A DNA stretch of 64,000 nt from an uncultured Dehalococcoidia bacterium. Lineage in GTDB: Bacteria > Chloroflexota > Dehalococcoidia > GIF9 > UBA5629. The stretch lies in the NCBI GenBank assembly GCA_903929005.1, contig CAIYTC010000202.1:3080-67079 (forward strand), written 5' to 3'. The position numbers were made by a program, and so were the translations under genes. The notes under the pieces were generated by a model. It searched no databases. It had not been told where the DNA came from and was given only the letters and a program-made list of their open reading frames with translations. Shown one piece after another: positions 20,271-60,568 of this stretch (position 1 is its first letter; each line of letters opens with the position of its first letter).

Positions 20271-20390
20271 ATGGCAAACCAGATAGGTAAAAAATATATT
20301 TGTGGCAAATGCGGTTCCGAGTTCATCGTTACCAAGGGCGGCAGCGGCCAGATCGTATGCTGTGGCCAGCCGATGGAACAGAAGAAGTAA
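20271..20390 (+). CDS. Desulforedoxin-like small metal-binding protein (39 aa; CxxC…CC)
   Basis: Not in the ORF track (<60 aa). 'MANQIGKKYICGKCGSEF…GQIVCCGQPMEQKK' has Cys11, Cys14, Cys30, Cys31 exactly as in desulforedoxin; RBS GGAGGG 8 nt upstream. Confidence 0.55.
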   Translation: MANQIGKKYICGKCGSEFIVTKGGSGQIVCCGQPMEQKK

Positions 20391-20422: not shown

Positions 20423-20566
20423 ATGGCAAACCAGCTTGGCAAGAGATTTAAGTGTGAAACATGCGGCTCCGAGGTGCTCTGCACCAAGGCCGGCGAGGGT
20501 ATAGTAATGTGCGACGGCAAGGAAATGGAGTTGCAGAAACCCAAGGCGCTGCCTTCGTCTGATTAA
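20423..20566 (+). CDS. Desulforedoxin-like paralog with altered Cys spacing (47 aa; CxxCx5C…C, the CC pair replaced by CD)
   Basis: 'MANQLGKRFKCETCGSEVLCTKAGEGIVMCDGKEMELQ'; RBS AGGAGAG 5 nt upstream; tandem with the first copy. Confidence 0.5.
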   Translation: MANQLGKRFKCETCGSEVLCTKAGEGIVMCDGKEMELQKPKALPSSD

Positions 20567-20589
20567 TAACGGCGAATACAAAAATGCCG

Positions 20590-20630
20590 TTGCGAGCCCG
20601 AAGGGCGCGGCAATCCCCGCCGCTTTTGAT
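20590..20630 (+). terminator. Hairpin + T-tract downstream of the desulforedoxin pair; the stem sequence is a short member of the dispersed repeat family
   Basis: 'gcgagcccgaagggcgcggcaatccccgccgcTTTTgatt' (stem gcggc/gccgc then TTTT); core 'cgttgcgagcccgaagggcgcggcaatc' matches the inverted arm of the repeat at 31394-31425. Confidence 0.35.
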
Positions 20631-20687: not shown

Positions 20688-20951
20688 ATGCGTGCGCACA
20701 TTATCCTTGATAACGAAATAGTTAAAGATATCGACAACCTGGTAGGCAAAAGGCGAAGGAGCCGCTTTATCGTGGAGGCGGTGTGCGCTAAATTGAGCCA
20801 GATGAAGCTTCTGATTGCCCTCAAAGAGACAGCCGGCATATTGTCAGGCGAAGATCATCCGGAGTGGAAAACATCCGAAGATGCAGCGAACTGGGTCAGG
20901 GACTCGCGTAAAGGAGACGACCGCCGCCTGAAGGGATTAAAGTTTGGCTAA
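20688..20951 (+). CDS. vapB: VapB-type antitoxin
   Basis: 87-aa ORF overlapping the downstream PIN-toxin gene by 8 nt; GAGGT RBS 7 nt upstream. Confidence 0.5.
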   Translation: MRAHIILDNEIVKDIDNLVGKRRRSRFIVEAVCAKLSQMKLLIALKETAGILSGEDHPEWKTSEDAANWVRDSRKGDDRRLKGLKFG

Positions 20952-21336
20952 ATATCTGCTGGATACAACTATACTGATAGAGCATCTGCGTGGAAAAAAG
21001 CCGGCTGTTAATTTTATCACTGGATTGATGCGGCATGGTCATCGATTGTGTGTCTGCTGTGTTAATATAGCCGAGTTATATTCGGGGCTAAGCCTTGAAC
21101 AGGGTGCTCAAGCAAAATTTCTAATCGATGCGCTGGACTATTGCGATGCAACGCCTGACGCGGCCATGCAGGCGGGTATTTACCGGTATGAATTTGCCCG
21201 CCGGGGCATCAGCCTCTCAGTAACCGATACGCTTGTCGCTGCCATAGCTAAGGCCAACGATGCAATTATCGTGACTGCCAACATCAGGCATTACCCGATG
21301 AAAGATATACAGGCGCAACAATATCCAACCGGCTAA
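20944..21336 (+). CDS. vapC: VapC PIN-domain toxin
   Basis: 'LLDTTILIEHL' N-terminal Asp, 'SVTDTLVAAIA', 'IVTAN.RHY' PIN acidic residues. Confidence 0.7.
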   Translation: MAKYLLDTTILIEHLRGKKPAVNFITGLMRHGHRLCVCCVNIAELYSGLSLEQGAQAKFLIDALDYCDATPDAAMQAGIYRYEFARRGISLSVTDTLVAAIAKANDAIIVTANIRHYPMKDIQAQQYPTG

Positions 21337-21390
21337 GATTGCTTCGCTACGCTCGCAACGACAGTTCAATACCAATATAATTAGGACACT

Positions 21391-23817
21391 ATGTCCCCTT
21401 CCTCAGCATATACCTCGCCGCTGTCCGGCCTGCGCGTCCTCGACCTGACCGATGAGAAGGCTGCTTTTTGTTCGAAGCTACTGGCCGGCCTGGGCGCCGA
21501 AGTGGTCAAAGTTGAACCGCCGGGCGGCTGCCCCTCAAGGCTAACCGGCCCTTTTGTAAATCATCAGCCCGGCGCAGATGGCAGCCTTTCTTTCTGGTAC
21601 GAGAATTCAGGGAAGTCCGGTATCACACTGGACCTGGAAAATAATCAGGACAAGAAAAAACTTTTTGACTTAGTTGCATCCAGCGACGCGTTAGTAGAAT
21701 CTTTCCGGCCCGGCTACCTTGCCGGCATAAATCTCGGCTACAGCGAGCTTTCGGCGGCCAACCCCGGGCTGGTGATGGCATCGGTGACCGGCTTCGGGCA
21801 GTCAGGGCCTTACGCACACTATAAATCCAGCGCGCTCGTCGCCGCGGCCAGCGGCGGGCAGATGTATGTCTGCGGCCACGCTGATAAACCGCCTCTTAAA
21901 CCTTATGGAAGCCAGCCGTATTACCTGGCCTCGCTGTTCGCAGCTACAGGCATCCTGCTGGCTTTGCGCCGGCGCAGCAGTACCGGGAAAGGACAGCATA
22001 TTGACATCTCCTTGCAGGAAGTTACCGCAGCCGCGCTGGAGCACGTGCTGGTGCAGTATTTCTACGGGAATGAGGCGCCCTGCCGGCAGGGTAGCCTGCA
22101 ATGGAACGCTGCGGCAGACCTCTTCCCCTGCCGCGACGGCAACGTGCTGCTGACCTTCGGGCGGGAATGGGACACGCTGGTGGAACTGCTCGGCAGCAGT
22201 GGTATGGCGACCGGCCTGGCGCACCATGCCTGGCGTGGCGCGGATTTCCGCCGGCAGCATATCGGCAAGATACAGGAGATCATAAGCTCCTGGACATGCC
22301 TGCAGGATAGCGGGGAGGTCTTCCGGCTGGGCCAGGATATGCGCTTCCCCTGGGCGGCGGTTAACTCCGTAGAGGACGTATTCAATAATGAGCAACTCAG
22401 GGCGCGAGGATATTTTGTGAAGGCGGAGCACCTGCTGAAGCAGGGAGGGTTCAAAGTCCCGCGGCCCGTCATCAATTTTGCGGACGCGGGCGCACCTGAA
22501 GGTACGCCCCTGCGTTACCAAAAATGTCGTTGCGAGGGTGAGCCGAAGCTGCGAGCCGAAGGCGTGGCAGTCAGCGACGAAGCAATCTGTAGGGGCGGGT
22601 TTTCAAACCCGCCCGAAAACGCGGGATCACATGAAGGTACGCCCCTGCGTGGTGTGCGGGTGTTGGACTTCACCTGGATGCTGGCCGGACCCTATGCCAC
22701 CCGTCTGCTGGCCGACTTCGGGGCGGAGGTCATTAAAGTGCAGTCGAAGCTCACCGCCAGCGGCGCCGAGCAAAATGACACAGGCTATTTTGCCAACTGG
22801 AACCGCAACAAGTTGAGCATCACGCTGGATTTGAGCAGGGCTGAAGCGCGGCAAACCGTGCTGGATCTGGTTGAGAAGTGCGATGTGGTCATGGAGAATT
22901 TCACCCCGCGCGTGATGGAGGGCTGGGGATTGGGTTATAGTGATTTGAAGCGGGTCAAGCCCGATATCGTAATGGTCAGCCTTTCAGGTTTCGGGCGTAC
23001 TGGCCCATGGCGCAACTATGCCGCCCTGGGTCCGACCGTGCAGGCGCTGTCCGGCCTCACGCTGTTGACCTCCTATGATGATGGACGGCCGGTCGGCATC
23101 GGCTTTGCCTATGCCGACCACCTTTCCGGCCTTTACGCGGCGCTGGCAGCCCTTGCAGCCCTGCGGCGCAGGGATAAGACGGGTCAAGGCGCATACGTTG
23201 AGATTTCAGAGCTTGAGGCGGCCTGCAGTACGCTGGGCCCGGCGTTGCTGGACTATTCTGTCAACGGGCGCGAGGCGGGACCCGCGGGCAATAAGGCTGA
23301 ATGGGGGCAGGCTGCCCCCCACGGCTGCTACCGCTGCAAAGGCGATGACCGCTGGTGCGTTATCGCCGTTTTCTCGGAAGACGAGTGGCAATCGCTGTGT
23401 AATGTCATGGGGCAGCCCCAATGGGCGTTGCAGGATAAGTTCTCCTCCGTCCGGTCACGCCTTGAGAATGCGAATGAGCTGGACATATTGATTGAAACAT
23501 GGACGGTAAATTACACACCCCGGGAGGTGATGGGAATGCTGCAGGCAGCCGGCGTCCCGGCCGCGGCGGTCAACGATGCCCGGGACCTGGCAAGTGACCC
23601 TCAGTTGTGTGACAGGGGCCTCTTCGTCGAACAGCAGCACCCGCTGCTGGGTATGATTAAGGCCGACGGCAACCCTATCAGGCTGAGCGCAACCCCGCCT
23701 CAATACAACAAAGCGGCGCCCCTGCTGGGCGAGGATAACCGGCATGTGTTCATCGATATGCTGGGGATGGAAAAAGAAAAGTTCAAAAGGTACGTGGCGG
23801 AGGGGATAATAGCCTAA
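21391..23817 (+). CDS. Tandem-domain family III (CaiB/BaiF) CoA-transferase, 808 aa, with an in-frame repeat-element insertion in the interdomain linker
   Basis: Two CaiB N-terminal signatures: 'LSGLRVLDLTDEKAAFCSKLLAGLGAEVVKVEPPGG' and 'LRGVRVLDFTWMLAGPYATRLLADFGAEVIKVQS'. Confidence 0.75.
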   Translation: MSPSSAYTSPLSGLRVLDLTDEKAAFCSKLLAGLGAEVVKVEPPGGCPSRLTGPFVNHQPGADGSLSFWYENSGKSGITLDLENNQDKKKLFDLVASSDALVESFRPGYLAGINLGYSELSAANPGLVMASVTGFGQSGPYAHYKSSALVAAASGGQMYVCGHADKPPLKPYGSQPYYLASLFAATGILLALRRRSSTGKGQHIDISLQEVTAAALEHVLVQYFYGNEAPCRQGSLQWNAAADLFPCRDGNVLLTFGREWDTLVELLGSSGMATGLAHHAWRGADFRRQHIGKIQEIISSWTCLQDSGEVFRLGQDMRFPWAAVNSVEDVFNNEQLRARGYFVKAEHLLKQGGFKVPRPVINFADAGAPEGTPLRYQKCRCEGEPKLRAEGVAVSDEAICRGGFSNPPENAGSHEGTPLRGVRVLDFTWMLAGPYATRLLADFGAEVIKVQSKLTASGAEQNDTGYFANWNRNKLSITLDLSRAEARQTVLDLVEKCDVVMENFTPRVMEGWGLGYSDLKRVKPDIVMVSLSGFGRTGPWRNYAALGPTVQALSGLTLLTSYDDGRPVGIGFAYADHLSGLYAALAALAALRRRDKTGQGAYVEISELEAACSTLGPALLDYSVNGREAGPAGNKAEWGQAAPHGCYRCKGDDRWCVIAVFSEDEWQSLCNVMGQPQWALQDKFSSVRSRLENANELDILIETWTVNYTPREVMGMLQAAGVPAAAVNDARDLASDPQLCDRGLFVEQQHPLLGMIKADGNPIRLSATPPQYNKAAPLLGEDNRHVFIDMLGMEKEKFKRYVAEGIIA
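22516..22631. mobile_element. MITE-like palindromic repeat copy inserted in-frame inside the CoA-transferase CDS, flanked by a perfect 19-bp direct duplication
   Basis: 'tgaaggtacgcccctgcgt' at 22497-22515 and 22632-22650; interior 'tgtcgttgcgagggtgagccgaagctgcgagccgaaggcgtggcagtcagcgacgaagcaatct' matches the copies at 47924-48019 and 60433-60568; insertion + one duplication = 135 bp (45 codons). Confidence 0.6.
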
Positions 23818-31310: not shown

Positions 31311-31425
31311 CACGTCATTGCGAACGAAGTGAAGCAATCCCAGACTCAAACCACGTCATTGCGAACGAAGTGAAGCAATCCTTCGATGGGGGTAGATTGC
31401 CGCGCCCTTTGGGCTCGCAATGACG
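31311..31425. repeat. MITE-like repeat copy: two direct 30-bp units plus one inverted arm
   Basis: 'cacgtcattgcgaacgaagtgaagcaatcc' at 31311-31340 and 31352-31381; inverted arm 'agattgccgcgccctttgggctcgcaatgacg' at 31394-31425. Confidence 0.6.
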
Positions 31426-31500: not shown

Positions 31501-33189
31501 ATGAGCGGTACAGATAAGTACGACCTTAAAGCGGTGAAATTGCCGAGGTTTGTGGGGGGGCAACTCTCCATGATCGCCGGCGCACTTGACATCGGCATAC
31601 TCAAGGCACTCCTGCTGCCCTCGATGCTGAAAAGCGGCGGGATAGAGGATTTCCGCGAACTTGTTCCTGAAGAGCCGCCCACCTTTTCCCCCATTTCTTT
31701 TGTGAGTAAGAAAGCGGAACCCGAGGACGGGCCGGACCTGAAGGCGCTGAATAAGATAGAAGGGAACGCTACAGGGGCAATGCACTGCCGGACTATCCGT
31801 GATTATTCAAAGGCCTACCACGATGGCAAAACCACGCCCGAGGATGTGGCCAGGCGCGCGCTGGACGCAATCAAAGGGGCCGACGCGGGTGATCTGAAGC
31901 TGAGGCCGTTTATCGCGGTTAATGAGGGTGATGTCATACAGCAGGCCAAGGCCTCGGCCGAGCGCTGGAAAGATAAAAAACCGCTCAGCGTGCTGGATGG
32001 TGTGCCGGTAGCAGTGAAGGACGAGGTGGACATGGTGCCCTATCCCACCACGGTCGGCACAAGCTTCCTGGGGAAGGGTCCGGCCAGGCAGGACTCCACA
32101 GTGGTGGCGCGGCTGCGCGCGGCAGGTGCCCTGCTGCTGGGCAAGGCCAATATGCATGAGATAGGCATCAGTACCAACGGGCTCAACGTCAATTTCGGCT
32201 CGACCCGCAACCCTTACAATCCCAAGCATGACACGGGAGGCAGCTCGACCGGTTCCGCCACGGCTGTGGCAGCGGGCATATGCCCGGTTGCCGTGGGCGC
32301 CGACGGTGGCGGGTCTATCCGCGTGCCGGCCGCCCTGTGCGGCGTGGTCGGCCTCAAGCCCACCTTCGGCCGTGTCAGTGAATTCGGCGCGGCGCCGCTC
32401 TGCTGGAGCGTAGCACACCTCGGCCCGATCGCGGCCACGGTGGAGGATGCTACCATCGGTTATGCCTGCATGGCCGGTACGGATATTAAAGAACCAAACT
32501 CGCTGCATCAGCCTCCCATGACATTGGAAGGCTGGAACAAGGCAGACCTTAAAGGGATTAAGCTGGGTATTTACAAGCCCTGGCTTGAGCATGCTGCGCC
32601 CGAGGTTGTGAAAGCCTGCAACGCGCTGCTGGAGAAACTGGTTGCTGCCGGGGCGCAGGTCAAGGAGATAGTCATTCCCGGGCTGGACACCATGCGCGTC
32701 GCCCACATCATAAGCTTCCTGAGCGAGGTGGCAGCCTCGATGAACAACTATCCTGACAACAGCAAGGATTTTGGCGCCGAGGTGCGCCTCAGCCTCGCCC
32801 TGGGGCGGGAATTCAACGCCGGCGATTATATCAAGGCCCAGCGCATCCGCACGCGCGTCATCGATATGTTCAAGGATATTTACAAAGAGGTAGACGCCAT
32901 CATCACACCTGCAACGGCTATTGTGGCCCCCGAGGTTTCGCTCGAAGATGCCGATGGCGGCTACTCCGACCTCTCAAGTACCACGGAGACCATGCGCTAT
33001 GCCTTCCCCGCCAACCTGGCGGGCCTGCCCGCCATCAGTTTCCCGGCGGGCTATGACTCCATCGGGCTGCCCATCGGCATGCAGGCCATGGGACGGTGGT
33101 GGGAGGAGAACCTGTTGCTGCGTATTGCCTACAACGCCGAAAAGCTTGTGGAGCGCAGAAAACCGGTAGCCTACTTCGACCTGTTGTAA
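31501..33189 (+). CDS. Amidase-signature-family amidase (FAAH-like, with N-terminal extension)
   Basis: AS signature '[14 protein letters not shown]…[28 protein letters not shown]'. Confidence 0.75.
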
Positions 33190-33431
33190 TGCATAGCGGG
33201 GTCTGTCACAGGGGCATAATATAGGATGGGTCTTTAGACCCGTCCGCGTTATCGGGCGGACATGAATGTCCGCCCCCACAGCAAGCCTGTCAGGGACGAA
33301 TGGAGGGGCGTACTTTCAGGTGCGCCCGTTTTCAGGCGGATTGTTAAACCCGCCCCTGCATCGCATTAAATCGGCCCCTCCTCGCAAAGACGCTTCATTA
33401 GTACTATAATGCGGCCAATGATATTTATAGT

Positions 33432-34121
33432 ATGGGCAGGATAACTCGGAGGAGACATAGCATGGGAAGTTTCACGCGGTCAGAGAAGACACTGGTGCTG
33501 GTTTTCTTCGTGCTGTCCCTGCTCTATATCTCCCTCATCCCGGTGTTGAAAGCAATGCCCGGGCTTTACGTCCTCAAGGACCTGCCGGACGTTATACTTG
33601 CCGCGCTTGCTTTAGGTGCGATTGCAGGGTTAAGGGGCAAGCTGCTCTTTGCCGCCTATATGCTCTGCGCCCTGGCGGGTTTGGCCCTGGATTTGCCCAT
33701 GAAGGACTCGTTCGTGCTCGGCCTGCTGCTGTTTCTGCTCGGCCACCTGGGCTATATTACTACCTTCCTGCTTGATTTTAAGTGGAGGCCGCGACGGCTA
33801 TGGATTATCGCACTGATATTGATTTATGCCATCGTTATGGCTGTCCTCTTCACCCCTTTCCTGGGAGACCTGCAGATGCCCGTTTACTGCTATATGGCGG
33901 TGCTCGGCATGATGTGCATCATTTCCACGCAGAGGAAGGCTACTAATAATTTCGTGATTTATGGCGCGCTGCTCTTTTTAGCCTCGGACTCCGCTCTGGC
34001 CAGCAATATGTTTGTCGCCCCGCTGGCGGGACAGGATTACATCGTGATGATCACCTATTTTGCCGCCCAGTTCTTCATCCTCTACGGTTTCCTCAAGGAT
34101 AAATACCACAAAAGCGCCTGA
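33432..34121 (+). CDS. YhhN-like (lysoplasmalogenase-family) membrane protein
   Basis: 229 aa, ~7 TM, 'LLFLASDSALA' FxxSD-type motif. Confidence 0.35.
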   Translation: MGRITRRRHSMGSFTRSEKTLVLVFFVLSLLYISLIPVLKAMPGLYVLKDLPDVILAALALGAIAGLRGKLLFAAYMLCALAGLALDLPMKDSFVLGLLLFLLGHLGYITTFLLDFKWRPRRLWIIALILIYAIVMAVLFTPFLGDLQMPVYCYMAVLGMMCIISTQRKATNNFVIYGALLFLASDSALASNMFVAPLAGQDYIVMITYFAAQFFILYGFLKDKYHKSA

Positions 34122-36639: not shown

Positions 36640-36677
36640 AGATTGCTTCGTCGCCTGCGGGCTCCTCGCAAAGACAT
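36640..36677. repeat. Half-copy (single arm) of the MITE-like repeat
   Basis: 'agattgcttcgtcgcctgcgggctcctcgcaaagacat'. Confidence 0.45.
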
Positions 36678-36722: not shown

Positions 36723-38090
36723 TTACGGTTTGTATGTGATTGTAAGGGCGCCGGCAAGGTCGACATTATCGCCCTCTTTGAGGATGTGCTTGCCCTTGCC
36801 GCGGATATCTGTACCATTCAGCCTGGTGCCGTTGGTGCTGCCACGGTCCTCGATATAGTAATCGCCGTTTTCGTAGCTAATGTAAATATGCTGGCGTGAT
36901 ATTAGATCAGCCTTACCCGGCCCGGCCAGTGCATGGAAATCGTTGCGTCCCAGTGACTGGCCTCCGGCCGCAAGGGAAATCTCCTTCCCTCCGCCCGCTG
37001 TGAATTTGGCCGCGGGACCGGTTGCGACGGCGGTAGTGGCATGTGAACCGGCAGCGGGCAGTGTGGCGGCAGGCACCGTGGATGAAGCTATGTAGCCTGC
37101 CCGTGTGCCGAAGTTGCGCCCTGAATAGGCTGGCACCGGTTTCCTCACCAGCAGGAAGATTATTACTGCAGCCGCTACGGCCAGCAGGCCGATCATCAAG
37201 GCGTACAATAGCCAGAGGTTGAGCGCCGGGCTGCCGCCGCTGCTGACCCCGCTGGTTAATATCCCGCCTGTGCCGGCGGTGTAACCACTGCTGCCGGTAG
37301 TTGTGTTAACACCACTGCCTGTACTGTATGTGGAATAGTACTGTGCTACAGTAACGGTAGTGCCGGCGCTCACGCTGCCCCCGCTGCCGCTGGCTGTAAG
37401 CGTATAGGTGGTTGTATAGGCAGGCGTGGTAGTATAGACACCCGTGCCGGGCACCGAGCCCACCGAGGGCGAAATTGTAACGTCGCTGGCGTTATTCACT
37501 GTCCATGACAGGACGGTGGATTGGCCGGGCTGTATATAGCTCGGGTTAGCAGTGAAGGAACTGATCACCGGCTCATAGACCGGCTGAGGTTGGGGTATCT
37601 CAACTACTATCTCAGGGGTATAAGTATTTACGTAGGGAGACCACCTTGCGTAGGGATATGGCCACACATAGGGATCCGAGTAATATGGGTATGAAGGAAC
37701 AGGTGGGCGGGGATGTGATGGGCCCGGGGGAAAAGGATGATGTCTCGTATGATTCTCTGATGAGGACGCCGGCGACAGATCCACCGTGGAAGGCGGTATA
37801 GCAGCAGGCTCTGTTACAGGGTCAGGCGCAGGAGGAACCGGCAGTTCCGGCGCCAGGTCAGCCGTGGAAGGTGGTGTAGCATCAGGCTCTGTTACAGGGT
37901 CAGGCGCAGGAGGGACCGGCGGCTCCAGCGCATCCGGTGGTGGTGAAACAGGCTCATCATCGGCCTGCCAGGCCAGGCCTTTATCGATTGCCGTGTCCGT
38001 TACAGCCCGGGCGGGCGTAACCGACAGCAAAAACGCAGTGCATATTAACAGTGCTGTTGCCAGGATCAGAGTTGTTTTTCTTAGATTCAT
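36723..38090 (-). CDS. Receptor-like FHA protein 1: signal peptide, Pro-rich repeats, conserved extracellular module + Ig-like domain, 1 TM, cytoplasmic FHA
   Basis: Start trimmed to 'MNLRKTTLILATALLICTAFLL' (RBS AAGGAGA); TM 'LWLLYALMIGLLAVAAAVIIFLLV'; FHA 'ISRQHIYISYENGDYYIEDRGSTNGTRLNG'. Confidence 0.7.
   Translation of the reverse strand: MNLRKTTLILATALLICTAFLLSVTPARAVTDTAIDKGLAWQADDEPVSPPPDALEPPVPPAPDPVTEPDATPPSTADLAPELPVPPAPDPVTEPAAIPPSTVDLSPASSSENHTRHHPFPPGPSHPRPPVPSYPYYSDPYVWPYPYARWSPYVNTYTPEIVVEIPQPQPVYEPVISSFTANPSYIQPGQSTVLSWTVNNASDVTISPSVGSVPGTGVYTTTPAYTTTYTLTASGSGGSVSAGTTVTVAQYYSTYSTGSGVNTTTGSSGYTAGTGGILTSGVSSGGSPALNLWLLYALMIGLLAVAAAVIIFLLVRKPVPAYSGRNFGTRAGYIASSTVPAATLPAAGSHATTAVATGPAAKFTAGGGKEISLAAGGQSLGRNDFHALAGPGKADLISRQHIYISYENGDYYIEDRGSTNGTRLNGTDIRGKGKHILKEGDNVDLAGALTITYKP
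37786..37941. repeat. Tandem 78-bp (26-aa) repeat, 2 copies, in the Pro-rich region of FHA protein 1
   Basis: Units start at 37786 and 37864 ('gtggaagg.ggt.tagca.caggctctgttacagggtcaggcgcaggagg.accggc…'); encodes 'PPAPDPVTEP..PPST.DL' twice. Confidence 0.55.
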
Positions 38091-38109
38091 TTGGTTCTCC
38101 TTATACAGA

Positions 38110-39660
38110 TTACATTTTGAATGTGATGTTGAGTTTGCCTGCCAGGTCAATTGCATCGCCGTTCTCCAGGACGTGCCTGCCTGCGTCTTTGATCTCTGTC
38201 CCGTTGACCCTTGTGCCGTTGGTGCTGCTGCGGTCCTCGATATAATATTTATTATCTTCATACCAGATATTGATATGCTGACGGGAAATGAAAGAAACGT
38301 AGTCCGGCGGCACGAATTTTTCAAAATCCTTGCGGCCAAACGGGCGGGCGTTGCCTGCCAGCAGCACTTCGCTGCCGTCGGGCATGGCAAGTTTGGCTGC
38401 GGGGGCCGCTATCACATCCGTAGTTGATGGTGATTCTGCGGCCGCTAATGTGGCGGCGGCCGCGGTGGCAGTGCCTGCCCGCGTGCCGGCCTCATGGCCC
38501 GCCGGGGCGGTTGCCGTCTTCCTGACCAGCAGGGCGACTATTACCGCGGCGGCTATTGCCAGCAACGCTATTAAACCATACAGCAGGTACGGCGGCTGCT
38601 CAACGGTTACGGTAGTAAATGCAGTGAGTGCCGTTCCGTCCATATAGGTGGCGGTTAGCGTATAGACGGTGGTATCTTCCGGCTTCACCTCGGTGGTCCC
38701 GCCGGCGCCAAAAGACCCGGCGCCGCTTATAAATACCTGCACGGCTGCGGGAGCGCTCCAGGATAGTGTCGTGGAATGTCCGCTCTGTATCCTAATCTGG
38801 GCCGCGCTGATGGTGGGCGGTATGCGCGGCAATACCGTTACACTGGCTGACGATGATACGGGGTTGCCCGACCGGCCCGTGGCCGTTAGCGAATAGGAGG
38901 TGGTTGTAGATGGCGTGACCGTGGTAGAGCCGGAGGCGCCGACCGTGCCGATGTCGGGCGAGATGCTTACGCTGCTGGCATTGCTGGTGGTCCAGGTGAG
39001 CGTGACGGTTTGCCCGAGCTCGACCGAGGGTAAATTCGCGCTGAAAGAGTTGATCACGGGGGGATAGACCGGCTGTTGTGTGGGGCCGGGAAGGCCGTAT
39101 GGATTGTAGCCCCTGGTGTAATTAAAGCTGAGGGTGCGCGTCGACCAGTTGCCGACGGTGATGAACCACATCTTCCAGGTATAGCTGCCGTCGGGGTCAA
39201 AGGAGCTGGCAGTGAACGGCCCGATCCTCCAGACACCGGCATAAGGACGGTCCCACCTGTAACACAGCCAGTGCCCGTAAGACGGGGCGCCGTAAGGGTA
39301 ATATTCCCATAAATAAAAATAACCCGGGCTATTGAAAGATATCACCAGGTAGCAGGCTTCGTTGGCATACAGGGTGGATACGAGCTGCCCGTAGCTGTTG
39401 ACAAGGTACGCATTGGTAATTGAACCGGATACTCCGGGTGGAACGGGTGACGGCGCCAGCATCTGCAGGTTGGGCCATGTCTGGCGGTAAGTTTCCACGC
39501 CGACGGATGGCGCCAGGGATTCGCCGCCCTCGTCGGGCGGCTGCCAGGCAGCTTCCGGGCTGGCAGGCGGGGATGGCTGGGCCTGCACCGGTGAGAGCGA
39601 TGTAACAACGGATGAAATGGCCAGCGCCAGGATAAGCAGCGTCAAGCATATATTTTTCAT
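38110..39660 (-). CDS. Receptor-like FHA protein 2 (paralog)
   Basis: Start at 'MKNICLTLLILALAISS' (GGGAGGTGA 8 nt upstream); 'LWEYYPYGAPSYGHWLCYRWDRPYAGVWRIGPF'; Ig-like 'PVINSFSANLPSVELGQTVTLTWTTSNASSVSISPDIGTV'; TM; FHA 'ISRQHINIWYEDNKYYIEDRSSTNGTRVNG'. Confidence 0.7.
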   Translation of the reverse strand: MKNICLTLLILALAISSVVTSLSPVQAQPSPPASPEAAWQPPDEGGESLAPSVGVETYRQTWPNLQMLAPSPVPPGVSGSITNAYLVNSYGQLVSTLYANEACYLVISFNSPGYFYLWEYYPYGAPSYGHWLCYRWDRPYAGVWRIGPFTASSFDPDGSYTWKMWFITVGNWSTRTLSFNYTRGYNPYGLPGPTQQPVYPPVINSFSANLPSVELGQTVTLTWTTSNASSVSISPDIGTVGASGSTTVTPSTTTSYSLTATGRSGNPVSSSASVTVLPRIPPTISAAQIRIQSGHSTTLSWSAPAAVQVFISGAGSFGAGGTTEVKPEDTTVYTLTATYMDGTALTAFTTVTVEQPPYLLYGLIALLAIAAAVIVALLVRKTATAPAGHEAGTRAGTATAAAATLAAAESPSTTDVIAAPAAKLAMPDGSEVLLAGNARPFGRKDFEKFVPPDYVSFISRQHINIWYEDNKYYIEDRSSTNGTRVNGTEIKDAGRHVLENGDAIDLAGKLNITFKM

Positions 39661-47923: not shown

Positions 47924-48019
47924 TGTCATTGCGGTGAGCCGAAGCTGCGAGCCGAAGGCGTGGCAATCTGTCCGAGGTGAGTAGATTGCTTCGTCGCTGC
48001 GGCTCCTCGCAAAGACAGT
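47924..48019. repeat. MITE-like palindromic repeat copy (both arms) between convergent hbd and hlyIII
   Basis: 'tgtcattgcggtgagccgaagctgcgagccgaaggcgtggcaatct'…'agattgcttcgtcgctgcggctcctcgcaaagacag'. Confidence 0.6.
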
Positions 48020-60432: not shown

Positions 60433-60568
60433 GTGTCATTAGATTGCTTCGTCGCTGCGCTCCCTTTTACCTGTCATTGCGAGGCCGCCGCAGCGGCCGC
60501 GGCAATCTGACCGTTAGTGGCGTAATGCCTACAGATTGCTTCGTCGCCTTCGGCTCCTCGCAATGACA
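60433..60568. repeat. MITE-like repeat copy (extra half arm + full inverted pair)
   Basis: 'gtgtcattagattgcttcgtcgctgcgctccc'…'ctgtcattgcgaggccgccgcagcggccgcggcaatct'…'agattgcttcgtcgccttcggctcctcgcaatgaca'. Confidence 0.6.

Follow-up and report, generated by a model that had tools for sequence, protein, structure and literature searches.

A hairpin-repeat mosaic translated as a predicted disordered connector within a fused CoA-transferase of uncultured Dehalococcoidia

The subject of this analysis is the linker between the two domains of a fused family III coenzyme A (CoA)-transferase from an uncultured Dehalococcoidia bacterium (GCA_903929005.1, contig CAIYTC010000202.1, positions 3,080 to 67,079); the window, that is the whole stretch of DNA analysed, is 64,000 nt long. 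The preferred reading, to which a probability of roughly 0.75 is given, is that this linker is an old, vertically inherited mosaic of hairpin repeats, translated as a disordered connector and tolerated while the reading frame is kept. Its components are two hairpin units defined by census, alpha (GTAG-GGGCGGGTTTnnAAACCCGCCC) and the 26-nt beta (GTAG-GGGCGTACCTTCAGGTGCGCCC), and a further repeat termed module A. The repeat census took in the window and 85 related loci (~1 Mb in total) and yielded 74 alpha and beta hits, while module A was counted by a regular-expression census. An earlier sequence-only reading had described the same segment as a 116-bp copy of one dispersed palindromic repeat, bounded by a perfect 19-bp duplication and owed either to the insertion of a miniature inverted-repeat transposable element (MITE) or to a recent gene fusion.

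The window contains two exact copies of the 19-mer TGAAGGTACGCCCCTGCGT and no more, one at 22497-22515 and the other at 22632-22650, a recurrence that none of 100 dinucleotide-preserving shuffles matched. As had been read, the two copies start 135 nt (45 codons) apart, lie in frame within the open reading frame (ORF) of the CoA-transferase and enclose an extra segment, YQKCRC...EGTPLR, that is free of stop codons. The similarity really spans 32 nt at 91% identity (22484-22515 versus 22619-22650). What had been taken for an insertion target-site duplication is instead part of the beta consensus GTAGGGGCGTACCTTCAGGTGCGCCC, which many genomes contain and which recurs at unrelated intergenic sites. 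The 26-nt consensus is found without mismatch in eight other genomes (L002, L003, L004, L006, L023, L081, L082 and L084), whose CoA-transferases are 60-86% identical to that of the window. Within the window, a beta unit lies between genes at 33302-33327, where CGGGCGCACCTGAAGGTACGCCCCT is reverse-complemented (33299-33328) and adjoins a GGGGCGGGTTT..AAACCCGCC hairpin. The first 19-mer is held by the unit beta-1, which folds at -10.1 kcal/mol (z -2.4), and the second by beta-2; both are the shared head ends of two beta units in the same orientation, and the 2-3 nt past the GTAG head (..CG[TC]) also belong to the family consensus.

The 116 bp are likewise not one copy of a dispersed palindromic repeat but a mosaic of module A, alpha and part of the second beta, the order across the linker being beta(-) / A / alpha(+) / 8-nt spacer / beta(-) (Table 1). 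Pieces of it recur separately across the window, alpha/beta hairpins at 33302-33359, a 36-nt core at 47933-47968 and the arms of module A at some 10 sites, and no full-length 116- or 135-bp block was found outside orthologous linkers in the window and related loci. Module A consists of conserved arms (CAAAAATGTCRTTGCGAG ... GCGACGAAGCAATCTG) around a GC-rich core that varies and in most cases forms a hairpin; strict copies number 9 in the window and 33 over the window and related loci, often as inverted pairs, and the consensus fold retains only an invariant outer 4-bp stem, the cores being unequal in length. Apart from those of this linker, the A, alpha and beta copies of the window sit in gaps between real genes, and no other true intragenic copies were found in the ~1 Mb. 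Two candidates for a second intragenic site were rejected: a shadow ORF without any Pfam match accounts for L004 215-1276, and the copy in L045 lies upstream of the PfkB start.

Table 1. Positions of the fused gene, the units of its linker and other repeat copies in the window
Feature	Position	Strand	Basis or remark
Fused family III CoA-transferase, 808 aa, BbsE-like half then BbsF-like half	21391-23817	+	ORF, Pfam, PDB match, AlphaFold2
Repeat-encoded peptide, aa 366-420, predicted disordered connector	22486-22650	+	AlphaFold2
beta-1, REP-like GTAG/GCAG-headed hairpin, 1 mismatch to consensus, encodes GAPEGTPL	22488-22513	-	census and fold
Module A, arms CCAAAAATGTCGTTGCGAG ... GCGACGAAGCAATCTG, nested second A-like core, encodes QKCRCEGEPKLRAEGVAVSDEAI	22518-22589	+	regular-expression census, arm alignment
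Nested long core of module A, 97% identical to intergenic 47933-47968	22537-22572	+	
alpha, GTAG-GGGCGGGTTTTCAAACCCGCCC, 0 mismatches to consensus, 9-bp stem, encodes (C)RGGFSNPP	22589-22614	+	census and fold
alpha-beta spacer, 8 nt, GAAAACGC	22615-22622	+	dimer alignment
beta-2, partly decayed beta hairpin, 4 mismatches, stem broken	22623-22648	-	census and fold
alpha-beta tail-to-tail dimer, intergenic	33302-33359	-	between ORFs 31501-33189 and 33432-34121
Further related hairpin beside this dimer	33254-33279		
Module-A copy, intergenic	20579-20615	+	regular-expression census
Module-A copy, intergenic	21337-21362	-	
Module-A copy, intergenic	31314-31339		
Module-A copy, intergenic	31355-31380		
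Module-A copy, intergenic	31395-31424	-	
Module-A copy, intergenic	36641-36675	-	
Module-A copy, intergenic	47925-47968		
Module-A copy, intergenic	47984-48016	-	
Module-A copy, intergenic	60473-60507		
Module-A copy, intergenic	60534-60567	-	overlaps shadow ORF only

The protein that carries this mosaic contains two PF02515 (CoA_transf_3) domains (Pfam, E 6.6e-195), the second at aa 419-783. Its closest solved structure is the benzylsuccinate CoA-transferase BbsEF (PDB 9fn0, chains A and B), domain 1 matching chain A and domain 2 chain B (E 2e-73); each half of the 808-aa protein thus corresponds to one subunit, and here the two are fused in a single chain. An AlphaFold2 model built from a 117-sequence alignment reached a mean predicted local distance difference test score (pLDDT) of 91.2 and a predicted template modelling score of 0.92, an earlier run with 25 sequences having been weaker (pLDDT 57.5). 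The sole internal stretch of low confidence, aa 367-414, has a pLDDT of 30-35 and no secondary structure, and in the model it essentially coincides with the repeat-encoded peptide. The structure prediction proposed as a check by the sequence-only reading gives a floppy segment between two well-modelled domains, and its view that repeat-family DNA lies in frame within the inter-domain linker and is tolerated there is borne out. At the downstream edge, the head of beta-2 covers the conserved Pro-Leu codons that open domain 2, which in repeat-free relatives starts with (L/M)PL(E/D)GVRVLD. More than 40 orthologs share with the window an intact ORF, in which insertions and deletions are exclusively frame-preserving, as in a palindromic insert within a probably functional protein. 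Because four of the six reading frames of the alpha-beta dimer lack stop codons, the stop-free reading of the linker is unremarkable by itself.

In structure, alpha and beta resemble GTAG-type repetitive extragenic palindromic (REP) sequences. Both are short palindromes, with a 9-bp stem in alpha and a 5+3-bp stem in beta, and the conserved end is seen in 47 of the 74 hits (GTAG in 33, GCAG in 14), most of the others being reverse-strand echoes of the palindromic alpha. They also form inverted pairs, as do REP doublets forming hairpins (REPINs): tail-to-tail intergenic dimers occur in the window (33302-33359) and at L001 1705-1761, L003 5810-5867, L004 301-357, L023 5893-5952 and L084 9786-9843, and a head-to-head alpha-beta dimer at L084 19359-19416. 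The dimers have folds of -16 to -18 kcal/mol, more stable than those of shuffled sequence (z -2.7 to -3.1), and 94.7% of cells are paired across 19 dimers. In the sample, which comprises 64 kb of the window genome and ~1 Mb of relatives, alpha and beta are dispersed and intergenic. No Rfam family matched at the gathering threshold, matches at E up to 10 being at chance level, and a phmmer search of the 56-aa linker against 1.84 billion representatives returned a single, uninformative 63-aa match. A metagenome scan with a 42-nt exact alpha-beta pattern, which was too strict, recovered only two loci, both orthologous CoA-transferases.

The distribution of fused and repeat-bearing genes is revealing of the order of events. 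More than 100 two-domain homologs of 745-842 aa and 46-86% identity were collected from Chloroflexota and Dehalococcoidia metagenome-assembled genomes, and a simple neighbour-joining tree was built with the linker columns left out. In L012 (6955-7281) and L013 (6925-7251), which are 53-55% identical to the window protein, the subunits are encoded by two genes with a stop codon and a gap of ~10 nt, free of repeats, and L011 is fused at the very point where these two are split; L012 and L013 on the one hand and L011 on the other form a natural before-and-after pair for the fusion. Deeper-branching proteins that are already fused (P0025, P0034, P0053 and most of P0059-P0120) have repeat-free linkers composed of a domain-1 tail (AP..GEHN..), ~25 variable residues and then (L)PL(E)G. 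Repeat-derived peptides are confined to a subclade at >=60% identity, comprising about 40 of the 117 sequences. Because the deeper branches are either fused and repeat-free or unfused, the fusion predates the repeats, and the linker does not mark the seam of any recent fusion. Close relatives of the window show the full beta-A-alpha-beta layout, as do P0023, P0032 and P0036, which are 61-62% identical to it, and the beta/A junction CGT TAC CAA AAA TGT CGT TGC GAG is identical in the window and in L085 (P0023). As layout and junction are common to orthologs this distant, the mosaic predates their deep split, and a recent single MITE insertion does not account for it.

The linker has nonetheless been variable within this clade, its length between INFAD and PLxG ranging from 15 to 85 residues, and L007 and L010 contain only decayed remnants of the repeats. 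The 25-aa C-terminal tail of domain 1 (APGYxWKPAPVAGEHNGxLxELM) is patchily distributed in the region aligned with aa 361-420 of the window protein, being present in P0003 and P0010 and absent from P0001, P0002, P0008 and P0009; the lineage of the window also lacks it, and wherever it is absent the FAD/AGAPEG junction is the same. This pattern reflects either repeated deletion or recombination between lineages. The long core of module A is similarly patchy among sister pairs (present in P0001, P0003 and P0004, a remnant in P0016, absent from P0002, P0005, P0009 and P0011), and since both its long and short forms exist as dispersed copies, conversion from such copies is its most likely cause.

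A search for an empty site, which the sequence-only reading had called for, was successful in part. The ortholog P0006 (L002) does have a single copy of the 19-mer and is exactly 45 aa shorter, its linker reading FAD-AGAPEGTPLR-GIRILDFT; however, it retains one exact beta unit and is nested in a clade of which all other members are occupied, with the occupied P0015 as its sister. In P0015 (L086), a deletion of 60 nt runs from CCTGAAGG in beta-1 to CCGAAGG within the long A core, and because this deletion ends in the long core, the ancestor of P0006 and P0015 had a window-like linker that included it. A secondary deletion, from one beta direct repeat to the other, therefore best explains the short linker of P0006. 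Deletion has removed the repeat cluster completely or partly in P0016 and P0014 as well as in P0006, the linker of P0016 being truncated to CHCEGQPKL-PLEG. Rearrangements in the opposite direction are also seen: L006/P0040 carries two alpha-beta dimers with a 56-nt perfect repeat, and L084 (11092-11140) has 21 nt extra after beta-2 (..CCC CTA CGT TCC GGC GAT TTG CCC CTA CGC..), read as TPLR-SGDL-PLRG, with CCCCTACG occurring twice, 12 nt apart. The extra 21 nt represent a native Leu-Pro-Leu junction that has been kept, or else a local duplication.

At the DNA level the repeats are far more uniform than the gene around them. Twelve linker alpha-beta dimers diverge from the consensus by 6.3% overall and by ~10% at third codon positions, whereas the adjacent 150 codons diverge from the window by 21% overall and 39% at third positions; third-position identity to the window in the right flank is 53-76% across orthologs, and the repeat clusters of the window and L085 are ~91% identical. 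Substitutions within the linker are somewhat enriched at third codon positions (12/8/24 at positions one, two and three). In each of the 13 linker dimers the alpha-beta spacer differs in length by 0 or 3 nt, and in three of six intergenic dimers by 2 nt; the frame is thus constrained only where the units are translated. Traces of exchange within a locus are also apparent. The two betas of L084 share a private A-to-T change (GGAACG, family GGTACG) within a 31-nt perfect repeat, and the two betas of L001 share four derived changes that recur in beta-2 of L004 and L014 (with one further change in L014). Since these derived changes are common to L001, L004 and L014, they point to vertical inheritance, after which beta-2 converted beta-1 in the same locus. 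The near-consensus state of the linker DNA would have been kept by gene conversion with dispersed copies rather than by selection for function.

In the preferred reading, alpha and beta are GTAG-headed, REP-like hairpins that normally occur as intergenic inverted dimers (REPIN-like), and A is a second hairpin family. Such units may have reached the linker by single-strand transposition of the type driven by REP-associated tyrosine transposases (RAYTs), which leaves no target-site duplication, after the subunit genes had fused, and the resulting mosaic would be translated as a connector of ~55 residues between two well-folded domains. The comparisons show that the linker has since changed by in-frame deletion at direct repeats or microhomologies (between the betas in P0006, between ..GAAGG motifs in P0015), by duplication (L006/P0040) and, inside the locus, by gene conversion (L001, L084).

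Several other explanations have to be set against this one. Recent insertion of a 116-bp MITE, with a 19-bp target-site duplication and in frame by chance, would account for the exact 19-mer on either side of the segment and for the P0006/L002 allele, yet it is very improbable: the flanking 19-mer is sequence of the element (beta) itself and not duplicated host DNA, the 116 bp are an A/alpha/beta mosaic and not a single element with insertion sequence (IS)-like terminal inverted repeats and full-length copies, the same architecture extends to orthologs of 61-86% identity, and the sole 'empty' allele lies among occupied relatives. A repeat of 19-32 bp is also far longer than the duplications usually made by transposases, and IS200/IS605-type elements are not known to make any. 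An origin of the linker from repeats lying between adjacent subunit genes, joined when a stop codon was lost, deserves no more credence. REP-type elements normally lie downstream of genes, the DNA immediately upstream of the CoA-transferase gene often contains A and alpha-beta units, and L012 and L013 keep two genes and a stop codon at this point; against this, those unfused relatives have no repeats in the ~10 nt between their genes, and the deeper fused orthologs have repeat-free linkers with a full domain-1 tail and the ~25-aa variable spacer. It is more conceivable, if still unlikely, that the site is a hot spot colonised independently in different lineages, for example by elements targeting the native Pro-Leu codons, CCCCT(N)C, for their likeness to a REP head. 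The units of distant orthologs are near consensus (0-2 mismatches in 26), as if young, the beta head lies exactly over the native Pro-Leu codons (L084 retaining both), and module content differs between lineages. Against independent colonisation, the window and L085 have one and the same beta/A junction, which is nearly identical in L084 and clearly related in L003 and L001, and a derived beta-2 variant is common to the L001/L004/L014 clade; junction and variant therefore indicate descent from one composite, and the decayed remnants in L007 and L010 are what is expected of old copies.

Unlikely, too, is the possibility that the mosaic has been co-opted and is kept by selection, either as a nucleic-acid element (an mRNA or DNA hairpin with an effect on pausing of translation, mRNA stability or the binding of proteins) or as a useful flexible or Cys-containing linker peptide. 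The much stronger conservation of the repeat DNA than of flanking silent sites and the third-position enrichment of substitutions are in its favour, as is the replacement of the lost 25-aa domain-1 tail and original spacer by the mosaic in several lineages, including that of the window. If it were true, the mosaic could be an mRNA or DNA hairpin cassette, serving for example in translation pausing during co-translational folding of the interlocked CoA-transferase, or might bind a host or RAYT protein or stand in for the linker after loss of the tail, and the flanking direct repeats would make linker length evolvable in frame. The great range of linker lengths and the repeated deletion or decay of the cluster argue otherwise, as do the predicted disorder, the weak covariation of the hairpins and the failure of terminator, promoter and composition scans to reveal a terminator-like site or compositional anomaly at the linker; conversion from a conserved repeat population explains the conservation equally well. 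An assembly artefact can be discarded almost entirely, even though repeats can mislead assemblers. P0122, which 5 contigs carry, appears to match the window protein at every residue, and P0001, a one-residue variant (807/808 identical to P0122; residue 348, 22433-22435, is Leu in the window protein and Pro in this database representative), is found on 2 contigs from different samples, so that two variants with the same linker on 7 contigs from at least 2 different samples exclude a chimeric join at the repeat. Furthermore, L083 differs from the window at 6 positions in 8427 nt, and orthologs from unrelated projects have the same layout. No length polymorphism within the population was seen.

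Some observations weigh against the reading of the linker as an old, inherited mosaic of REP-like units. Covariation in the hairpins is weak, with two double changes, and values as high as those observed arise in 22-33 of 500 shuffles, a weakness attributable to the high conservation of the dimer sequence. A search with Pfam of the ORFs beside repeat clusters in the window and ~1 Mb of related loci found no RAYT or other transposase, and a tblastn search over the ~1 Mb, with an approximate E. coli RAYT query, gave no RAYT match. Without a RAYT, the mechanism of mobilisation would be only an analogy and membership among the REPINs is incomplete. The neighbour-joining tree is a simple one, and the patchy domain-1 tail and long A core hint at recombination that possibly blurs the polarity of events. 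Finally, the near-consensus DNA could instead reflect selection on DNA or RNA, or repeated re-insertion.

Translation of palindromic repeats within genes is a phenomenon already known. Superfamilies of GTAG-tagged REPs, including some from Chloroflexi, form head-to-head and tail-to-tail dimers that are mainly intergenic, and intragenic in-frame dimers or clusters encoding 20-82 aa have been documented (Di Nocera et al. 2013, PMC3733652); the same paper cites Ogata et al. for the in-frame Rickettsia palindromic elements (RPEs). The units described here resemble the GTAG REPs and REPINs (PMC3733652; Bertels and Rainey 2011, PMC3116915) in being GTAG-headed hairpins of ~22 nt, arranged in inverted dimers and mostly intergenic, conserved as a family across related genomes and occasionally translated in frame into tens of residues. 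They differ in that no RAYT is linked to alpha or beta here and in that a mosaic of three families is fixed at one linker throughout a clade reaching down to ~61% protein identity. Alpha and beta are not among the families named in the main text of PMC3733652, where the string 'GTAGGGGC' does not appear.

The likeness to RPEs is a functional one only, in that palindromic repeats are translated as extra segments of probably functional proteins; RPEs belong to an unrelated lineage and are longer single elements, whereas here several short units occupy the inter-domain connector of a fused enzyme. In the bacterial interspersed mosaic elements (BIMEs) of enterobacteria, REP units alternate in orientation with interleaved short motifs and expand or contract by recombination or slippage. 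The linker cluster is like these mosaics in layout, but BIMEs lie outside genes and the linker mosaic is translated. Bacterial MITEs (Correia/NEMIS, RUP) share small size, non-coding nature, dispersal, foldability and occasional in-frame location in genes; the linker cluster, in contrast, lacks long terminal inverted repeats of IS type, and the repeat that flanks it is sequence of the element and not a duplicate of host DNA.

The new elements of the present findings are the alpha, beta and A families in uncultured Dehalococcoidia and the persistence of a three-family mosaic, with clear concerted evolution, at one inter-domain linker across deep divergence. In a literature search, no paper had 'Dehalococcoidia' and 'repetitive extragenic palindromic' together; two or three uncharacterised hairpin-repeat families are documented here for these organisms. 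The related loci provide a natural series of linkers, from unfused to fused to repeat-colonised and then deleted, duplicated or converted, in which 'extragenic' repeats become lasting coding sequence in disordered connectors. The combination of a perfect flanking repeat with an 'empty' allele mimics a fresh transposon insertion, and here it was misleading. The same repeats will yield spurious ORFs and odd linker peptides in metagenome annotations.

Some further observations concern module A outside the linker. In distant Dehalococcoidia contigs (L031 3236-3385, L075 1922-5208 and L081 3575-10777) it takes the form GTCATTGCGAG...GCAATC, usually in inverted pairs and with very different GC-rich cores; the family seems to be wider than alpha and beta and is uncharacterised as far as could be found. 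Between the nitroreductase and amidase genes of the window lies an A cluster (31311-31424) in which two 100% identical 30-nt copies (31311-31340 and 31352-31381), 41 nt apart, are followed by the inverted copy at 31395-31424. A VapBC-like cassette, consisting of an 87-aa antitoxin (20688-20951) and a PIN toxin (20944-21336), is bracketed by the inverted module-A pair at 20579-20615 (+) and 21337-21362 (-), and also occurs at L086 2186-2972. The syntenic loci L084 (9780-10000) and L085 (520-635) are without the cassette, and the gap contains an alpha-beta dimer and, in L084, also the right A arm, which suggests gain or loss of the cassette at A elements.

Two repeats of other kinds were encountered in the window. 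At 20271-20390 and 20423-20566, tandem small genes encode proteins of 39 and 47 aa resembling Desulfoferrodoxin_N (PF06397), the first 72 nt of the two being 74% identical. A 78-nt tandem repeat with two copies, 87% identical (37769-37924), is located inside a minus-strand ORF of 555 aa with an FHA domain (36726-38390), where it would be an in-frame 26-aa repeat.

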